Below, piece by piece: positions 40,250 through 45,340 of a DNA stretch of 64,000 nucleotides (positions are counted from its first letter, which is position 1; each line of letters starts with the position of its first letter). The notes below the pieces were generated by a model. It had not been told where the DNA came from and ran no database searches. It saw nothing but the letters and a program-made list of their open reading frames with translations. Source of the DNA: an uncultured delta proteobacterium. Its GTDB lineage: Bacteria; Desulfobacterota; BSN033; UBA1163. A program made the position numbers and the translations under genes. The DNA is taken from NCBI GenBank assembly GCA_963827685.1, contig CAWHBU010000001.1, forward strand, positions 363,680 to 427,679. The letters are read 5' to 3'.

Positions 40250-40278
40250 TTGACACTATAAACATATTGTATTATATT
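40250..40278 (+). promoter_or_regulatory. sigma70 promoter upstream of the RHH-pom-like cluster
   Basis: TTGACA-17 nt-TATATT. Confidence 0.65.
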
Positions 40279-40307
40279 GTATTTCAAATTGTATAGAGGG
40301 GGTTTCT

Positions 40308-40490
40308 TTGGCACAGAAAAAGGTTGCCCGTACCATTTACATTAAAGACGAACAAATGGAGGCCTTAAAGAGGTTATCTGAGAAGACCAAAGTCCCTCAG
40401 TCCGTCTATGTTAGGGAGGCTTTGGATATGCTCTTGGAAAAATATTCTGAACAACTGAAATTCGAATTTAAAGAGTATTTCAAAGGATAA
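40308..40490 (+). CDS. Ribbon-helix-helix protein, CdbA-like
   Basis: KKVARTIYI..EQ...LK.LSEKTKVPQSVYVREALDMLLEKY; resembles recalled Myxococcus CdbA/CdbB. Confidence 0.75.
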   Translation: MAQKKVARTIYIKDEQMEALKRLSEKTKVPQSVYVREALDMLLEKYSEQLKFEFKEYFKG

Positions 40491-40530
40491 CCTCTTTGAA
40501 AGCATCTCAGGGCTGGAATGGAAAGGTAAC

Positions 40531-41283
40531 GTGGATCGTTTCCGATTAAGTTACTTAAAATCAACAGAATTTGAAAGATTGGAGTTTGATGAATCTTTTT
40601 CATACAATGATGCCAGAAAAACGACAAATCCCCCCTCTCTTTCTCCAGAATTCAATATGCCGGAGACTCTTTCCTCCGAAGCCATTCTAAAACAGGCGAA
40701 GGCTGATCTGAAGAATTCCGATTCGAAGATAAGAATCTTGGCGATAAAATACTATTTGGAAAAATCTTATCCCTCCATTCCCCTGTCTCTTCTTCAGGAA
40801 ATTTTATCTGATCGAGACCCGGATGTCAGAGCCGAAGCGCTCCGTTGCCTTATTAAATTTAGAAGCCCTATCGTTTCCCCTTTATTAAGAAAATATCTTA
40901 AGGATAGCGATCCAAGGGTCAGGATCGCTGTCCTCCGAGGAATGCTCCAATATCAAGAAAAAGTCGACCTAAACATCCTTCTTCAATCTTTGAGCGATGA
41001 ATCTCCTTGGGTGAGACGGAAAGTGGCTACCGTATTAGGGTGGACACAAAGAGAGGGGGCCTTACCCATCCTGATAGAATTGTCAAAGGATCAGGACCCA
41101 AAGGTAAGAAGGGCAGCTCTTTTTTCTCTGGTCACCCTTTATCCTGATGAGAGTGAGGATCGTTTGATGGAGGCCATGACCGATTCCGATCCGGGTCTTC
41201 GAAAATGGGCGAAAACGACTTTAGAAAAAATAGCGGCTGGACCGTTGAAAAGAAAAACGGCTTCTCTTACAAAACGAGGTTGA
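40531..41283 (+). CDS. HEAT-repeat protein, PomY-like by position
   Basis: Repeated LxDxDPxVR units; lies directly upstream of the PomZ-like ATPase. Confidence 0.75.
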   Translation: MDRFRLSYLKSTEFERLEFDESFSYNDARKTTNPPSLSPEFNMPETLSSEAILKQAKADLKNSDSKIRILAIKYYLEKSYPSIPLSLLQEILSDRDPDVRAEALRCLIKFRSPIVSPLLRKYLKDSDPRVRIAVLRGMLQYQEKVDLNILLQSLSDESPWVRRKVATVLGWTQREGALPILIELSKDQDPKVRRAALFSLVTLYPDESEDRLMEAMTDSDPGLRKWAKTTLEKIAAGPLKRKTASLTKRG

Positions 41284-41300
41284 GGACGAAAAAAGGATCC

Positions 41301-42311
41301 ATGGTGACACGCTCATTACCCCTTATTCAAAGGGCTCAGATTCTCGGAGACGTCATCTACTCGCCGATGGCCTTTGCCAAGCTCCTCGGGATTTCTAAGC
41401 ACGATCTCCTTGAGAAAGAGGCGAAAGGAATCCTTCCCCCTGCAAAGAGGGATTCCAATCAGGAACGCTATTATAAGCCAGAGGATGTCAGCAAGTATCG
41501 CGCCTACCTGGGACTTCCTTCCCCCCTCCCATCCATCCGCAAACAGCTCTTTCTCAACTTTAAAGGGGGAACAGGGAAGAGCACGATCTCCGCTTCTTAT
41601 GGTTTTCGCCTTGCCCAGATGGGAGCCCGGACATTACTGATCGATTTAGATCCACAAGGCCATCTCACACAATGCCTAGGCCTCAACAGCCAACAGTTCC
41701 CCAAAACCCTGTTCCATGCCCTGATCGAGAAGGAAGAGATGGAAAAGGTCATCGTCAAGACGGATCTCCCCACATTGGATATAATCCCCTCGAACCTGAA
41801 CCTCTCACCCGTAGAGCTCTCGCTCTTTTCCATGAATTCAAGAGAGTTCCGATTAAGGAGGCTGATCAGTTCTGTGGAGAAAAACTACGAACTGATTGTG
41901 ATGGACGCCTCCCCCAGCATCGGGCTCTTAAACCTGAATGCGATCCTCGCCTCCAACGATCTCATCATCCCCGTCTTGGCCGATTTTCTTTCCTACCATG
42001 GGCTCAAGATTCTTTTCGAGACCCTCTCCACGATCGAAGAGGATTTTTCATTTGTTTTTGAGAATATCTTCATCTTCCTGAACCGCTACAATGAGTCTCA
42101 TCGAATCTGCAAACGTTCGAAGAAGGCGCTGGAGACCCACTATGACAAATACCTCCTCAGCACCGTGATCCGTCAAGATACCAAGATCGCAGAGGCAACG
42201 AGTCAAGGAAGCCCGATCTTCCTGTTCGCCCAATCGTCAAAGGGCGCGGCGGATATCCAGAGCCTGATCGATGAAATATTAGAACCGAAAGGAGCTGATC
42301 ATGTCAGATGA
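41301..42311 (+). CDS. pomZ: ParA/MinD-family ATPase, PomZ (AgmE)-like, with N-terminal HTH-like extension
   Basis: RKQLFLNFKGGTGK, LLIDLDPQGH, GLLNLNA..ASNDL..PVLADFLSYHGLKILFET, SSKGA.DIQ match recalled M. xanthus PomZ. Confidence 0.8.
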   Translation: MVTRSLPLIQRAQILGDVIYSPMAFAKLLGISKHDLLEKEAKGILPPAKRDSNQERYYKPEDVSKYRAYLGLPSPLPSIRKQLFLNFKGGTGKSTISASYGFRLAQMGARTLLIDLDPQGHLTQCLGLNSQQFPKTLFHALIEKEEMEKVIVKTDLPTLDIIPSNLNLSPVELSLFSMNSREFRLRRLISSVEKNYELIVMDASPSIGLLNLNAILASNDLIIPVLADFLSYHGLKILFETLSTIEEDFSFVFENIFIFLNRYNESHRICKRSKKALETHYDKYLLSTVIRQDTKIAEATSQGSPIFLFAQSSKGAADIQSLIDEILEPKGADHVR

Positions 42312-42633
42312 ATTCACGAACAACGTGGCACAAAAATTCCCCAACACACTGAATAAAGAGCCGATTGAAAGGCCTTGGGATGTTGCGGAAGCCCGTCCCC
42401 TCTCTCCTTTGAAGAAACTTGTGGAAGAATCCAAAAAGGATGATTTGACCGAACGGATCGATACGCTTTATTCTGAGCTTCGTTCCTCTTTGACGGTGCG
42501 GTCTGCGCTGGAATTCGATCTGAAGAAGGCCAATCGAATTCTTGAAGAGGTGAACCGGGTCAAAGCAGAAGTCGAAAAGATTGTCGAGATGTTGAGGGTG
42601 ATGGATGGATACATGAAAGAACGAATCAAGTAA
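42301..42633 (+). CDS. Short coiled-coil protein with PomX-like N-terminal peptide
   Basis: MSDEFTNNVAQKFP; overlaps the pomZ stop; own SD (AAGGAG). Confidence 0.6.
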   Translation: MSDEFTNNVAQKFPNTLNKEPIERPWDVAEARPLSPLKKLVEESKKDDLTERIDTLYSELRSSLTVRSALEFDLKKANRILEEVNRVKAEVEKIVEMLRVMDGYMKERIK

Positions 42634-42707
42634 TCCCCTTCCCTCCCTTTCCCGGAGACGGGGAAAGAAGGAATGAGGGAGGGTCGAATGGCTGAGGAGG
42701 GTATAGG

Positions 42708-43523
42708 ATGAAACCAAGAAGTCAGGTGATGACGGCCGATGGATTCGATACGAATGTTGCCGAAAAGATGCCGAAGATTAGAAAGCTGGAAGAACCCCTT
42801 CCCTCACCCCTGGAAATGGAACCCCAGTTACTGGAAGAAGATTATCACGAGCCTGTACCAGAAATGAGAATTCCGGAGAAGCAGGTAGAGAGGAAGATGA
42901 TCTTCGAATCTCCAAAGAAAGGGATCGAGACCGAACAGAGTCTGGACGTCCTGAAACTGATCGAAGACCTTCATGCTCAGCTCCTTGCCTCGGCCCAGAC
43001 CAAGAGGGCTCTGGAGATGGACCTGGCTTCTTACAAGAAGAGCATCCATCAATTGGCCCAAGATAATCAAGAATTACGTCGCCAGTGGGAAGCCCTGAGC
43101 AGAGAGCATCAGAGGCTCAAAGAGTTGCAGTCCGAATCGATCTATCTTCAAGAGGAGAATGCAGACGCCTTGGAGCGAATCAAAGAATTTCAACAGGAAT
43201 TGAGAGAGATGAGGGAAGCCTTGGCCAAAGCCACTCAGGAAAGAGAGGAAGCCTTCGATCGAATTCGTGATCTGGAATCCCAGATGGAACAGAACGAGGT
43301 GGTTAAAATCAAAGGAAAGTTAAAGGAGAGAGAAGCCTCCGTTTTCTCTGAGGAGAACCGGGAACTCCAATCCAAACTGGAGGAGGCCCTCACCCAGAAT
43401 AGGGATCTGGAGAAAAAGTACGAAACCTTGAAAAAATCCTTTAATGAAGTGAGAGAATCTCTCACCTTTTTAAGGGATTCCTGCAAAGTAAATTACTACA
43501 ACCTATCGGAGACCCCTGAATAA
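42708..43523 (+). CDS. PomX-like protein (N-terminal peptide, Pro/Glu linker, long coiled coil)
   Basis: GFDTNVAEKMPKIRKL, then PLPSPLEMEP, then a long heptad-rich region. Confidence 0.65.
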   Translation: MKPRSQVMTADGFDTNVAEKMPKIRKLEEPLPSPLEMEPQLLEEDYHEPVPEMRIPEKQVERKMIFESPKKGIETEQSLDVLKLIEDLHAQLLASAQTKRALEMDLASYKKSIHQLAQDNQELRRQWEALSREHQRLKELQSESIYLQEENADALERIKEFQQELREMREALAKATQEREEAFDRIRDLESQMEQNEVVKIKGKLKEREASVFSEENRELQSKLEEALTQNRDLEKKYETLKKSFNEVRESLTFLRDSCKVNYYNLSETPE

Positions 43524-43651
43524 AATCGAAAATTCTTGACATCCTCCAGTAATTAAAGTATAAAGTAATTATTTATTCGTTTGCTCGCCGTTTTTTATCC
43601 CCTCTCGGTACCTGTTCCACACAGAAGGGAATATTTCAAAGGAGAGCCGTT

Positions 43652-45340
43652 TTGAAAATTCGATTGATCGATCCAGCCTATGAGCACCCTTACATCAGCC
43701 ACTCGCAAAAGGTAATTAAGAACATCTGGTTTGCCCGCCTCACGCTGACCGCGTTGGCTGCACTCACCCCCTCGAATATCGAAGTGAATATCACGGATGA
43801 GAATGTCGAGCCCATTGACTTTGAAGAGGAGGTGGATCTGGTCGGTGTGACCGGAATGGTGATGCATGCTCCAAGGGCTTACGAGATCGCACAGAGGTTT
43901 CGTCAGAGAGAGATCCCGGTCGTCATGGGCGGACCTCATGCCTCAAGCCTTCCCCTCGAAGCCAAGCAGCATGTGGATGCGGTGGTCATCGGTGAAGCGG
44001 AGAATGTCTGGGGAGGATTGATTGAAGATTTTAAGAAGGGATGCCTCAAACCTTTCTATCAGGCGGAGTCCTTCTGCTCGATGGAAAGACTCCCCTTTCC
44101 GAGGCTTGATCTCCTTCATAAAGATGCCTACATGACAATCAACTGTGTCCAAACGACCCGGGGTTGTCCTCACCAATGTGATTTTTGTCATGTCACGCAT
44201 TTTTTTGGAAAGACTTATCGCTGTCGGCCGGTGGATGAAGTGATTGAAGAGGTGAAGCGGTTAGAAGGGGATTTTCTTGTTTTCATCGATGACAATATCG
44301 CTGGAAACCCCCGCTATGCCAAAGAGCTCTTTACCCGATTGAAGCCCCTCAAAAAGAAATGGGCCAGCCAGGCCAGTATGACCCTGACCCGGGACCCCGA
44401 ACTCCTGAGACTTGCTGCGGAGAGCGGATGTGTCTCTTTGTTCATCGGGGTCGAATCCCTCTCTTCGGAAAACTTGAAGGATGTGAATAAAAGCTTTAAT
44501 CAAGTCCACCAATTTGAGGAAGCCATGAAAGCCGTTCACGACCACGACATCTTGATCGTGGCCGGGTTCATTTTTGGATTGGATCATGATGATGAAGGGG
44601 TCTTTGAAAGGACGCTTCGATTTTGTGAACGGAATCGAATTGAATTGCCCAGTTTCTTCATTCTCACCCCCTTACCCGGGACGGCTTTATTCCAAAGGAT
44701 GGAGTCAGAGGGCAGGCTCCTGCATAAAGATTGGAGTCAATATAATGGAGCCACAGTTGTTTTCAAGCCGAGATTGATGACCGAAGAGACGCTTCAGCGC
44801 GGATTTAATTGGGCATGCAAAGAGGGATATTCCTGGGGTTCCATCTTTAAAAGGGTTTGCCATCCCCAACAACGATTCGTCACTCGAGTCCTTTCGAATA
44901 TCGCCTACCGAAGCATTGCGCAGAGGACACCGGAGGGTTATCTTCCAAGCCTTTCACGAATTTTGCAGAGGATGAATGATACCATCCCTCTCCACAATAC
45001 TCGGGACTTGATTCAGCGGGTGGGGGAGAAAATTGCCGAGAGGAAACTTCGGATTGGTCAAAAAGCCGCCGATACGCTCAAACTCTATTCTATTTATAAC
45101 GAGCGGGTTAGAACCCTGTTCGTCAGACTCGAGGGATCGATGGATCGGGAGGGAGCGAAAGAGTTGGTAGAGAGGCTTAAAGGAGTTTTACATGTAAAGA
45201 TCCAGAAAGTCATCCTTGACTTCAAAGATGTTGGAGCTTTTTCCTCAGAGGCGATCTCCCTGCTCTCCAGAAAAGGTCTTCTTCAGACAGAAGAAGGAAA
45301 ACTCTGGATCGCTGTGAACCCACCGGGCATCCTTGGTTAG
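43652..45340 (+). CDS. B12-binding radical SAM protein with C-terminal STAS-like extension
   Basis: VVMGGPHAS, RGCPHQCDFC, FIDDN, TPLPGT; tail VRLEGSMD...VILDFKDV. Confidence 0.9.
   Translation: MKIRLIDPAYEHPYISHSQKVIKNIWFARLTLTALAALTPSNIEVNITDENVEPIDFEEEVDLVGVTGMVMHAPRAYEIAQRFRQREIPVVMGGPHASSLPLEAKQHVDAVVIGEAENVWGGLIEDFKKGCLKPFYQAESFCSMERLPFPRLDLLHKDAYMTINCVQTTRGCPHQCDFCHVTHFFGKTYRCRPVDEVIEEVKRLEGDFLVFIDDNIAGNPRYAKELFTRLKPLKKKWASQASMTLTRDPELLRLAAESGCVSLFIGVESLSSENLKDVNKSFNQVHQFEEAMKAVHDHDILIVAGFIFGLDHDDEGVFERTLRFCERNRIELPSFFILTPLPGTALFQRMESEGRLLHKDWSQYNGATVVFKPRLMTEETLQRGFNWACKEGYSWGSIFKRVCHPQQRFVTRVLSNIAYRSIAQRTPEGYLPSLSRILQRMNDTIPLHNTRDLIQRVGEKIAERKLRIGQKAADTLKLYSIYNERVRTLFVRLEGSMDREGAKELVERLKGVLHVKIQKVILDFKDVGAFSSEAISLLSRKGLLQTEEGKLWIAVNPPGILG

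Follow-up and report, generated by a model that had tools for sequence, protein, structure and literature searches.

A candidate PomXYZ-like operon in a Syntrophus-related anaerobe of soil or sediment

In myxobacteria the cell-division ring is placed by the PomXYZ system. A five-gene operon at positions 40250-43523 of a 64,000-nucleotide (nt) stretch of an uncultured delta proteobacterium (C1:363680-427679, the whole of which is called the window here) encodes an ATPase that can be assigned firmly, from sequence identity and phylogeny, as an orthologue of PomZ. Its gene is preceded by genes for a ribbon-helix-helix (RHH) protein and a HEAT-repeat protein and followed by genes for two coiled-coil proteins of 110 and 271 amino acids (aa), here called cc110 and cc271; the identities of these partner proteins as Pom-like are probable. 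It is very likely that the locus encodes a positioning module of the PomZ type in which the coiled-coil partners bear a peptide. We lean, by a modest degree, towards the fuller reading that the operon is a chromosomal, autoregulated and compact relative of myxobacterial PomXYZ and a new architectural variant outside the Myxococcota. That its output is division-site selection, through recruitment of FtsZ, is argued by analogy and is given slightly less than an even chance.

The assembly that holds the window comprises 5.23 Mb in 14 contigs and is 94.5% complete with 8% contamination. The closest named records to this genome are metagenome-assembled genomes (MAGs) labelled Thermodesulfobacteriota, Syntrophaceae or ‘Deltaproteobacteria’, and the top protein matches are labelled likewise. 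Judged by these relatives, the genome is non-myxobacterial and its host belongs to the Thermodesulfobacteriota. A first-pass annotation of the stretch had supposed a host outside the myxobacteria and had described a single promoter followed by co-oriented RHH, HEAT, ParA ATPase and two coiled-coil open reading frames (ORFs), without a ParB or rep gene. This description stood throughout: the named relatives are MAGs of Thermodesulfobacteriota and Syntrophaceae, every element is present in its place, and there is no ParB or rep gene among the window ORFs. The features of the operon are listed below, with isoelectric points as pI.

40250..40278, + strand: sigma-70-type promoter TTGACA-17-TATATT, 11 of 12 positions matched
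40263..40294, + strand: three direct repeats (C/T)A(T/A)ATTGTAT, spacing 10 and 12 nt, over the -10 box; presumed RHH operator
40308..40490, + strand: RHH protein, 60 aa, TTG start (Pfam RHH_3, E 6e-18; PHROG Arc-like repressor, E 3.5e-5)
40531..41283, + strand: HEAT-repeat protein, 250 aa, GTG start, pI 9.35 (HEAT_2, E 9e-44; six repeats)
41301..42311 (longest ORF from 41205), + strand: PomZ-family ParA/MinD ATPase, 336 aa (AAA_31, E 4e-45)
41358..41492, + strand: MerR-like helix-turn-helix (HTH) region of the ATPase, residues 20-64 of the 336-aa form (MerR_1, E 3.7e-4, just under cut-off)
41562..41582, + strand: deviant Walker A motif KGGTGKS of the ATPase, residues 88-94, its columns invariant in a 40-row family alignment
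42301..42633, + strand: cc110, 110 aa, with a peptide resembling the NPEP of PomX at residues 1-15, RPWDV at 24-28 (nt 42370-42384), then a helical part
42708..43523, + strand: cc271, 271 aa, PomX-like, pI 5.07, with the N-terminal peptide DGFDTNVAEKMP at residues 11-22 (nt 42738-42773)

An ATPase of the PomZ family

The assignment of the ATPase as a PomZ orthologue, which the first-pass annotation had proposed, draws on a reciprocal best match, a phylogenetic tree and residues specific to the PomZ pocket. In Myxococcus xanthus PomZ is MXAN_0635, PomY MXAN_0634 and PomX MXAN_0636. The reference for PomZ was P0123 (POMZ_MYXXD, ‘Cell division protein PomZ’), and the reference pom locus, L119, came from an 8.97-Mb genome; its ATPase is named Corallococcus macrosporus and falls in the same 90% cluster as POMZ_MYXXD. 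The PomZ of L119 has the expected residue at 25 of the 25 PomZ positions given in the available text of bioRxiv 10.1101/2025.12.01.691545. Upstream of it is an ORF that joins a coiled coil to HEAT repeats, and downstream an ORF beginning MKKAFEQNVSRAKPRLRLG, matching the PomX NPEP residues of that paper.

The window ATPase and POMZ_MYXXD share 49% identity over 309 residues (306 bits, E 4e-108). In the opposite direction, the PomZ of L119 finds the window ATPase in the window genome at 308 bits, the runner-up being a Soj protein encoded beside ParB on contig C4 (152 bits). A search of 201 sampled Myxococcota genomes with the window ATPase gave 88 matches at 279-346 bits, including one in the unpublished genome G200, and the remaining matches were at or below 160 bits except for two intermediates (239 and 223 bits). 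Matches of the Soj type are 29-36% identical to the window protein and the full-length plasmid ParAs among the matches listed 28-33%, the best plasmid ParA reaching 33% and 167 bits; the best PDB chain scored 125 bits. The top NCBIfam match is plasmid RepA at 106 bits (cut-off 348), the MinD model TIGR01968 gave 39.3 bits (cut-off 212.9) and the MipZ family of Pfam a partial match of 22.9 bits. Two segments that the first-pass annotation had named as distinctive of PomZ, QLFLNFKGGTGK and PVLADFLS(F/Y)HGLK(L/I)LFET, are present both in the window protein and in POMZ_MYXXD. The K, G and K of the window Walker A motif correspond to K61, G62 and K66 of PomZ, and the catalytic aspartate (PomZ D90) and the DNA-binding lysine (PomZ K268) are kept.

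A careful maximum likelihood tree was built from 55 rows and is unrooted, with long-branched outgroups; in it 38 PomZ-family rows form one clade (ultrafast bootstrap, UFBoot, 97; SH-aLRT 95; stem 0.73). This clade holds the window protein, seven close relatives, eight proteins at 56-67% identity, five from genomes labelled Latescibacterota or Ignavibacteria and 17 from Myxococcota, P0123 among them. It divides into a Myxococcota subclade (100/98) and a subclade of all the others (90/80). Outside it fall 13 Soj-like or other paralogues, two of which come from the window's own genome, and four plasmid ParAs; the closest outgroup to the family is a ParA from a plasmid, encoded next to a ParB. The window ATPase therefore lies within the PomZ clade (97/95) and clusters neither with Soj nor with the plasmid ParAs.

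The partner-binding clefts were compared at the PomZ positions modelled as touching the NPEP of PomX and the alpha5 helix of PomY (bioRxiv 10.1101/2025.12.01.691545, available text). In the window ATPase five of the 13 NPEP-cleft positions are identical and four conservative, and seven positions differ between the family and Soj; at the alpha5 cleft five of eight are identical and the other three conservative. The Soj paralogue of the same genome agrees with PomZ at 3/13 and 1/8 positions, respectively. A prediction of the complex of the ATPase dimer with ATP/Mg and residues 1-60 of cc110 gave scores of 0.36, 0.15 and 0.24 against a mark of 0.32, with the controls unfolded, and is used here as evidence in neither direction.

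The start of the ATPase is almost certainly the ATG at 41301 and not the codon at 41205, because most of the 120 homologues listed are 335-336 aa long and because the overlap with the HEAT gene vanishes. Near this start the stretch YSPxxFAxLLGISKxEL is conserved across the ATPase family including PomZ. In the more general form YSxxxFAxxLG(I/V)Sxxxl this MerR-like stretch was seen in all family members, in M. xanthus PomZ at residues ~6-45; it is longer in the non-myxobacterial ATPases, and the available text of the Pom literature makes no comment on it.

Partner proteins and their peptide

The Pom proteins of myxobacteria are described here from the available text of the papers concerned. PomX has a pI of 4.9, a disordered N-terminus and a coiled-coil C-terminus, and PomY a pI of 9.3 (PMC10307791). 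The NPEP of PomX comprises its conserved, positively charged residues 1-22, of which K13 and R15 are essential, and activates PomZ; the site of this peptide overlaps the MinE site on MinD (bioRxiv 10.1101/2025.12.01.691545). PomY has six or seven HEAT repeats and is encoded directly upstream of pomZ. Its N-terminal coiled coil (5-106) is needed for condensates and for FtsZ recruitment in M. xanthus (PMC10307791), and its C-terminal disordered region, which carries the alpha5 activator helix, is needed for ATPase activation and is accompanied by a globular end (496-682).

In the window the order HEAT gene, ATPase gene, gene for a peptide-bearing coiled coil mirrors pomY-pomZ-pomX, as the first-pass annotation had supposed. 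The HEAT gene holds the position of pomY, its stop lying 17 nt from the ATPase start, and by direct reading its product contains six D-x-D/S-P-x-V/I-R repeats. When the PomY of L119 was used as query, its sole match in the genome was the window HEAT gene (E 2.7e-6), although at least eight ORFs carry HEAT_2. HEAT repeats directly upstream of the ATPase were found in the window, in the group with ATPases at 56-67% identity and in Myxococcota. In the upstream ORFs of L075 and L119 HEAT_2 starts near residues 266 and 254, respectively, and the long N-terminal part that precedes it looks helical or coiled-coil-like by reading. A separate observation concerns the N-terminus of the window HEAT protein, where the peptide x-D-R-F-R-L-(I/V)-Y-L-K-S (40531-40570) is conserved in the HEAT proteins of close relatives (starts in L003-L040) and absent from those of the 56-67% identity group. 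From its sequence this DRFRL(I/V)YLKS peptide may be one more peptide that docks on the ATPase, in which the alpha5-type cleft is conserved.

The cc110 gene starts 11 nt before the end of the ATPase gene, with AAAGGAG ahead of its start; its product begins MSDEFTNNVAQKFPN and runs on to RPWDV. A gap of 74 nt separates it from the cc271 gene, the product of which reads MKPRSQVMTADGFDTNVAEKMPKIRK in its N-terminal peptide region. Searches of Pfam and NCBIfam with cc110 and cc271 returned no family above cut-off, and coiled-coil families only below it. In an AlphaFold2 model of cc271, a single helix spans residues 76-264, after a stretch (1-75) of low confidence and without secondary structure; this layout of disordered N-terminus and helical C-terminus in an acidic protein matches that of PomX in the available text of PMC10307791. 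Full-length alignment is possible between the cc271 family and the peptide-bearing proteins from the 56-67% identity group; a motif of the RPWDV type is common to cc110, the 56-61% identity group and the partners from Latescibacterota and Ignavibacteria-labelled genomes but is not in PomX. In the gap between the two genes lies a G+C-rich inverted repeat, CCCTTCCCTCCCTTTCCC ... GGGAAAGAAGGAATGAGGGAGGG (42635-42690), which, to go by its sequence, could fold in the mRNA and tune the ratio of cc110 to cc271. In the clade with ATPases at 56-61% identity, the end of the PomX-like gene is overlapped by a coiled-coil gene of 79-80 aa (L048:4842-5081, L049:6770-7009, L050:6933-7175 and others). Homology between the product of this small gene and the C-terminal half of cc110 was considered and dropped, the hhalign probability being 1%.

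The peptide is the feature that the partner proteins share across the family. An ORF with an M-x3-F-x2-[NSD]-[VIL]-x4-P start, placed -35 to +489 nt relative to the ATPase stop, was found in 39 of 41 loci and in all clades. A 35-row alignment of the peptide shows no variation at M1, F5 or P14 and almost none at V9, with basic residues after P14. The genome ORF set for the N-terminal profiles contained 18,519 ORFs; just two of these carry the strict N-terminal motif and both directly follow the ATPase, a count that speaks for uniqueness in the genome and not for homology, because the motif was written with both genes known. A profile of 12 peptides taken from the intermediate clades, without the window family, placed cc110 first (E 4.4e-8) and cc271 second (E 7.5e-8) among the N-termini of this set, with the next at 1.3. 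When the same profile was run on 2,408 N-termini from 20 myxobacterial loci, most of the best 20 were PomX (E 0.02-0.08).

Operon organisation, conservation and setting

The promoter at 40250-40278 was the top of ten sites in a scan in which 4.8 sites were expected in shuffles. Its TTGACA hexamer is present in 40 of the 42 related loci with an RHH gene, and the RHH start codon is TTG in the same proportion (40/42). A 16-mer core, TATTGTATTATATTGT, occurs across these 42 loci exactly in 25, with up to one mismatch in 38 and with up to two in 41, and it stays while the DNA further upstream varies between loci. The triple ATTGTAT cluster was found once in the 5.23-Mb genome, in this promoter. A single repeat cluster exactly over the -10 box fits an operator and, since the RHH protein also matches an Arc-like repressor, autorepression is the simplest reading; the RHH protein is probably an autorepressor that would bind the ATTGTAT repeats. 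It has ~8 residues before its first strand by direct reading, which is short for an activating tail. A sequence search of the PDB with this protein gave nothing meaningful, the best match being a homeobox at E 0.018.

The five genes are closely packed, as the overlap of cc110 with the ATPase gene (11 nt) and the gap between HEAT and ATPase genes (17 nt) illustrate. Downstream, a TTGACA-17-TATAAA promoter-like site (43536-43564) lies between the cc271 stop and a radical S-adenosylmethionine (SAM) gene, and suggests that the five-gene operon ends at 43523; the site was unlisted in the promoter scan because the last base of its second hexamer is A. The gene that follows (43652-45340) encodes a B12-binding radical SAM protein of 562 aa with sub-threshold C-terminal STAS matches (E 2.4e-4), an unusual combination, and is syntenic with the operon in many relatives.

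Conservation was followed in 46 related loci whose ATPases are at least 79% identical to that of the window. In 38 of these close loci the set of five genes is complete and in order, and this argues that the arrangement is not due to chance; of the other eight, three are cut by contig ends, four have no detectable RHH gene and one lacks cc110. The RHH gene was likewise undetected in all loci with an ATPase below 79% identity. The flanking genes for csp, S21, an RRM protein and the B12-binding radical SAM protein are syntenic in many close loci. In one Syntrophaceae MAG two ORFs just upstream of the HEAT gene (L045:2168-3819) resemble ruvA and ruvB by N-terminal sequence. In a sample of 301 genomes of the phylum, kept separate from the Myxococcota sample, the ATPase was found in 14, including eight of the nine other genomes of the window's own family.

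The operon is chromosomal and sits in a 64-kb run of ordinary chromosomal genes with unremarkable G+C content. The ParB-family matches of the genome lie at C4:378165, C1:104182 and C4:212572, none of them inside the window, and a Soj-ParB pair separate from the operon is encoded on contig C4. A scan of the window ORFs found no rep or integrase gene near the operon, and Rfam no RNA family in the window. A defence system and a phage origin were both considered and rejected: PADLOC gave generic HEAT and coiled-coil matches only, and the PHROGs matches were limited to a ParA-like partition protein and the Arc-like repressor. Searches of the window genome (94.5% complete) detected neither MinC nor MinE and gave no MinD match that reached the cut-off; those for MinD and MinE covered this genome. 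These missing Min proteins are uninformative, because 275 of the 301 phylum genomes are also without a MinC match.

A sister clade within the 90/80 subclade comprises loci from Latescibacterota and an Ignavibacteria-labelled MAG (L066, L067, L070 and L078) and has ATPases 52-54% identical to that of the window. The partner encoded there starts MxDxFDxN(V/I)AxRxP and has an (R/H)PWD(V/I) motif. Among the neighbours are replication initiator protein A (L066:5001-8241) and a LexA-like S24 repressor (L067:3892-7701), and no HEAT gene was seen next to the ATPase in these loci. By their gene content these loci resemble partition modules of mobile elements that use the same pair of ATPase and peptide. 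A PomZ-family gene from a Latescibacterota MAG (L068:3729-4691) contains an in-frame stop and may be a pseudogene, a sequencing error or a case of recoding.

Proposed mechanism, alternatives and known systems

A mechanism can be proposed by analogy with PomXYZ. ATP-bound dimers of the ATPase would bind the nucleoid non-specifically, and the acidic cc271 would build a scaffold through its 190-residue helix. From the disordered N-terminus of cc271 the peptide xGFDxNVAxKMP would dock on the ATPase dimer and trigger ATP hydrolysis, as the NPEP of PomX does. The cc110 protein, with a second copy of the peptide and presumably translationally coupled to the ATPase, would act as a second activator or as an adaptor, and the basic HEAT protein would coat the scaffold in the role of PomY. 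Local depletion of the ATPase around the scaffold would then create a flux imbalance that moves a single assembly to mid-nucleoid, while the RHH protein would bind the three ATTGTAT repeats at the -10 box and keep the operon repressed.

Several results weigh against taking the operon for a variant of Pom. No division gene adjoins it among the window ORFs and their Pfam matches, FtsZ being encoded on contig C3 (C3:761286-762263), and no feature of the sequence connects the locus with FtsZ or with division. The HEAT protein, which had been likened to PomY, matches it at the generic HEAT level only and lacks three of its four parts. Where a PomY-type N-terminal coiled coil would be expected there are ~57 residues before the first HEAT repeat, with no match to a coiled-coil family, and in place of the C-terminal activator region and globular end there is a tail of ~14 residues, the HEAT matches extending to ~236 of 250. 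In the reverse search with a profile of the HEAT protein PomY came first in one of five Myxococcota genomes (G167) and second to fourth in the others. On the ATPase, the window family has K, K and Q where the NPEP pocket of PomZ has E248, E256 and E275. For the coiled-coil proteins no homology to PomX over the full length can be detected: the cc271 family profile has no match in any of five Myxococcota genomes, and the PomX of L119 none in the window genome; PomX is undetectable even between some myxobacterial loci. A peptide profile made from PomX only (12 myxobacterial N-termini) does not single out the window peptides, ranking cc271 66th (E 55) and cc110 1169th of 18,519, so that the connection with PomX passes through the intermediate clades and through gene position. 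The link of the window peptides to the NPEP of PomX is therefore statistically weak and mainly positional. MinC, which occurs in 26 of the 301 phylum genomes and is confined to few families, was found in none of the 14 carriers of the ATPase and in 26 of the 287 others, which gives no signal of complementarity. Finally, the partners in the sister clade contain HTH_36, together with DnaA_N in L067, and such DNA-binding partners indicate that the pair of ATPase and peptide works on DNA-linked cargo in that clade and that the ATPase family is not tied to one cargo. Of the five-gene Pom variant put forward in the first-pass annotation, the PomZ-type ATPase and the gene order are supported, and a PomX homologous over its whole length and a specific PomY match are not.

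It is possible that the same machinery carries another cargo, such as a storage or enzyme assembly, a chromosomal region or an envelope complex, and that the likeness to Pom is one of mechanism only. The service that the ATPase family gives to HTH_36/DnaA_N partners beside replication genes, a HEAT protein without the PomY coiled coil that M. xanthus needs for FtsZ recruitment, and the placing of FtsZ on another contig with no division gene adjoining all point this way, and occurrence in 14 of 301 phylum genomes is patchy, as expected for an accessory function. We nevertheless regard it as unlikely, though well short of negligible: the layout of a basic HEAT protein, a PomZ-type ATPase and an acidic, peptide-bearing coiled coil is described only for Pom in the available literature text, and no conserved candidate cargo gene adjoins the operon, the flanks of which are housekeeping genes that upstream depend on lineage.

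RHH proteins on tandem repeats in their own promoter are the centromere binders of type Ib partition systems (ParG, omega). By this general precedent, the operon could be a domesticated or resident DNA-partition cassette in which the RHH protein binds the ATTGTAT repeats as a centromere and the ATPase segregates the DNA that carries them, be it a mobile element or a chromosomal region. The three tandem repeats over the promoter, the plasmid ParA with a ParB neighbour that is the closest outgroup of the PomZ family, the sister-clade loci resembling mobile-element partition modules and the best NCBIfam match to plasmid RepA (106 bits against a cut-off of 348) would all suit such a cassette. It is made improbable by the ordinary chromosomal setting of 64 kb, with its conserved synteny and unremarkable G+C content, and by the lack of a rep, integrase or ParB gene nearby. 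The RHH gene, moreover, is missing from 4 of the 46 close loci and from all loci below 79% identity while the ATPase, HEAT and coiled-coil genes remain, the one repeat cluster lies exactly where an operator would, and the ~8 residues ahead of the first RHH strand are few for an activating tail. Much more remote is the idea of an ordinary orphan Soj/ParA with unrelated neighbours and a superficial likeness to Pom. Source annotations such as ‘chromosome partitioning protein’ or ‘AAA family ATPase’ would be in line with it, but the genome has a separate Soj with ParB, the identity to PomZ is 49% against 29-36% for Soj-type matches, and the five genes are co-conserved and tightly spaced, as the 11-nt overlap and the 17-nt gap show. 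The strict peptide motif occurs twice in the genome, both times in genes following the ATPase, and the reciprocal match to PomZ, the conservation of the locus and the tree contradict the idea as well.

Taken as a relative of PomXYZ, the operon would extend a system that has been described as myxobacterial (PMC7993993, PMC10307791, PMC11725790, PMC12288465, PMC11407121, PMC4672049, bioRxiv 10.1101/2025.12.01.691545), its proteins being said, in the available text of these sources, to ‘co-occur in Cystobacterineae’ or to be ‘conserved in Myxobacteria’. A full-text literature search for papers that connect Pom terms with Deltaproteobacteria homologues, Syntrophus, Syntrophales, Desulfobacterota or Thermodesulfobacteriota was negative; figures and supplements, which may show PomZ homologues, were outside its scope. 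In the literature searched, a PomZ orthologue with Pom-like neighbours in Thermodesulfobacteriota is thus undescribed. Its presence in strictly anaerobic members of this phylum widens the range of Pom and suggests that machinery of the Pom type is older and more widespread than has been thought. Most of the phylum has no recognisable Min system. The window operon is a natural minimal version, with a 250-aa HEAT protein and partners of 110 and 271 aa, in which the essential parts of Pom (condensate coiled coil, second activator and scaffold) can be tested. Should the cargo prove not to be the divisome, the locus would still define a new cargo for a well-studied positioning mechanism.

The sister clade with its DNA-binding adaptors offers a concrete route from a DNA-partition ATPase to use with a protein scaffold, and a wider proposal, tentative and rather doubtful as it is, can be built on it. 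Pom would then not be a myxobacterial invention but a single branch in an older family of ParA proteins that bear an HTH and whose partners share the peptide MxDxFxxNVxxxxP. This peptide would be carried by DNA-binding adaptors in mobile elements of Latescibacterota and the Ignavibacteria-labelled MAG, and would have moved onto HEAT-recruiting coiled-coil scaffolds in Thermodesulfobacteriota and Myxococcota. The Syntrophaceae-type operon would accordingly represent a minimal, RHH-autoregulated Pom that places the division ring without the condensate coiled coil of PomY, two proteins with the same peptide replacing the PomX/PomY pair.

Among known systems, MinD/MinE and MipZ belong to the same ATPase superfamily and also place the Z ring, but the ATPase reaches only 39 bits of the 212.9 set for the MinD model, the genome has no MinC or MinE that could be found, and the MipZ family of Pfam is matched in part (22.9 bits). 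With plasmid ParAs of type Ia and Ib (RepA/SopA-like; ParF-ParG and delta-omega) the operon shares the ParA/MinD fold, the deviant Walker A motif, an N-terminal HTH, an RHH gene in the operon and tandem promoter repeats, and a plasmid ParA is the closest outgroup in the tree. It differs in showing only 28-33% identity to them among the matches listed, in having chromosomal synteny and no ParB or rep gene, in its HEAT and coiled-coil partners and in an RHH gene that is dispensable in some lineages. The sister clade (L066, L067, L070, L078) is closer, with ATPases 52-54% identical and a partner that has the same peptide and the (R/H)PWD(V/I) motif of cc110, but this partner has HTH_36/DnaA_N instead of a coiled coil, the neighbour is a replication initiator or LexA-like protein and no adjacent HEAT gene was seen.

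From PomXYZ itself the operon differs in having five genes instead of three, the extra RHH gene coming with a conserved operator, and two peptide-bearing coiled coils of 110 and 271 aa where Pom has one PomX of 404 aa. Its HEAT protein has 250 aa against the 682 of PomY and is without the coiled coil, the alpha5-bearing disordered region and the globular end; K, K and Q take the place of three acidic residues in the peptide pocket of PomZ; and the N-terminal HTH of the ATPase is longer, which puts Walker A at residue 88 and not 61. No whole-protein homology to PomX is detectable, and the host belongs to the Thermodesulfobacteriota and not to the Myxococcota. As in M. xanthus, a separate ParABS is present and MinCDE was not found. 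Shared with PomXYZ are the orthologous ATPase (49% identity, reciprocal best match, one clade), the order of HEAT gene, ATPase gene and gene for a coiled coil with an N-terminal peptide, the pattern of M1, F5, V9 and P14 followed by basic residues in that peptide, and the combination of a basic HEAT protein with an acidic scaffold, cc271, that has a disordered N-terminus and a long C-terminal helix.

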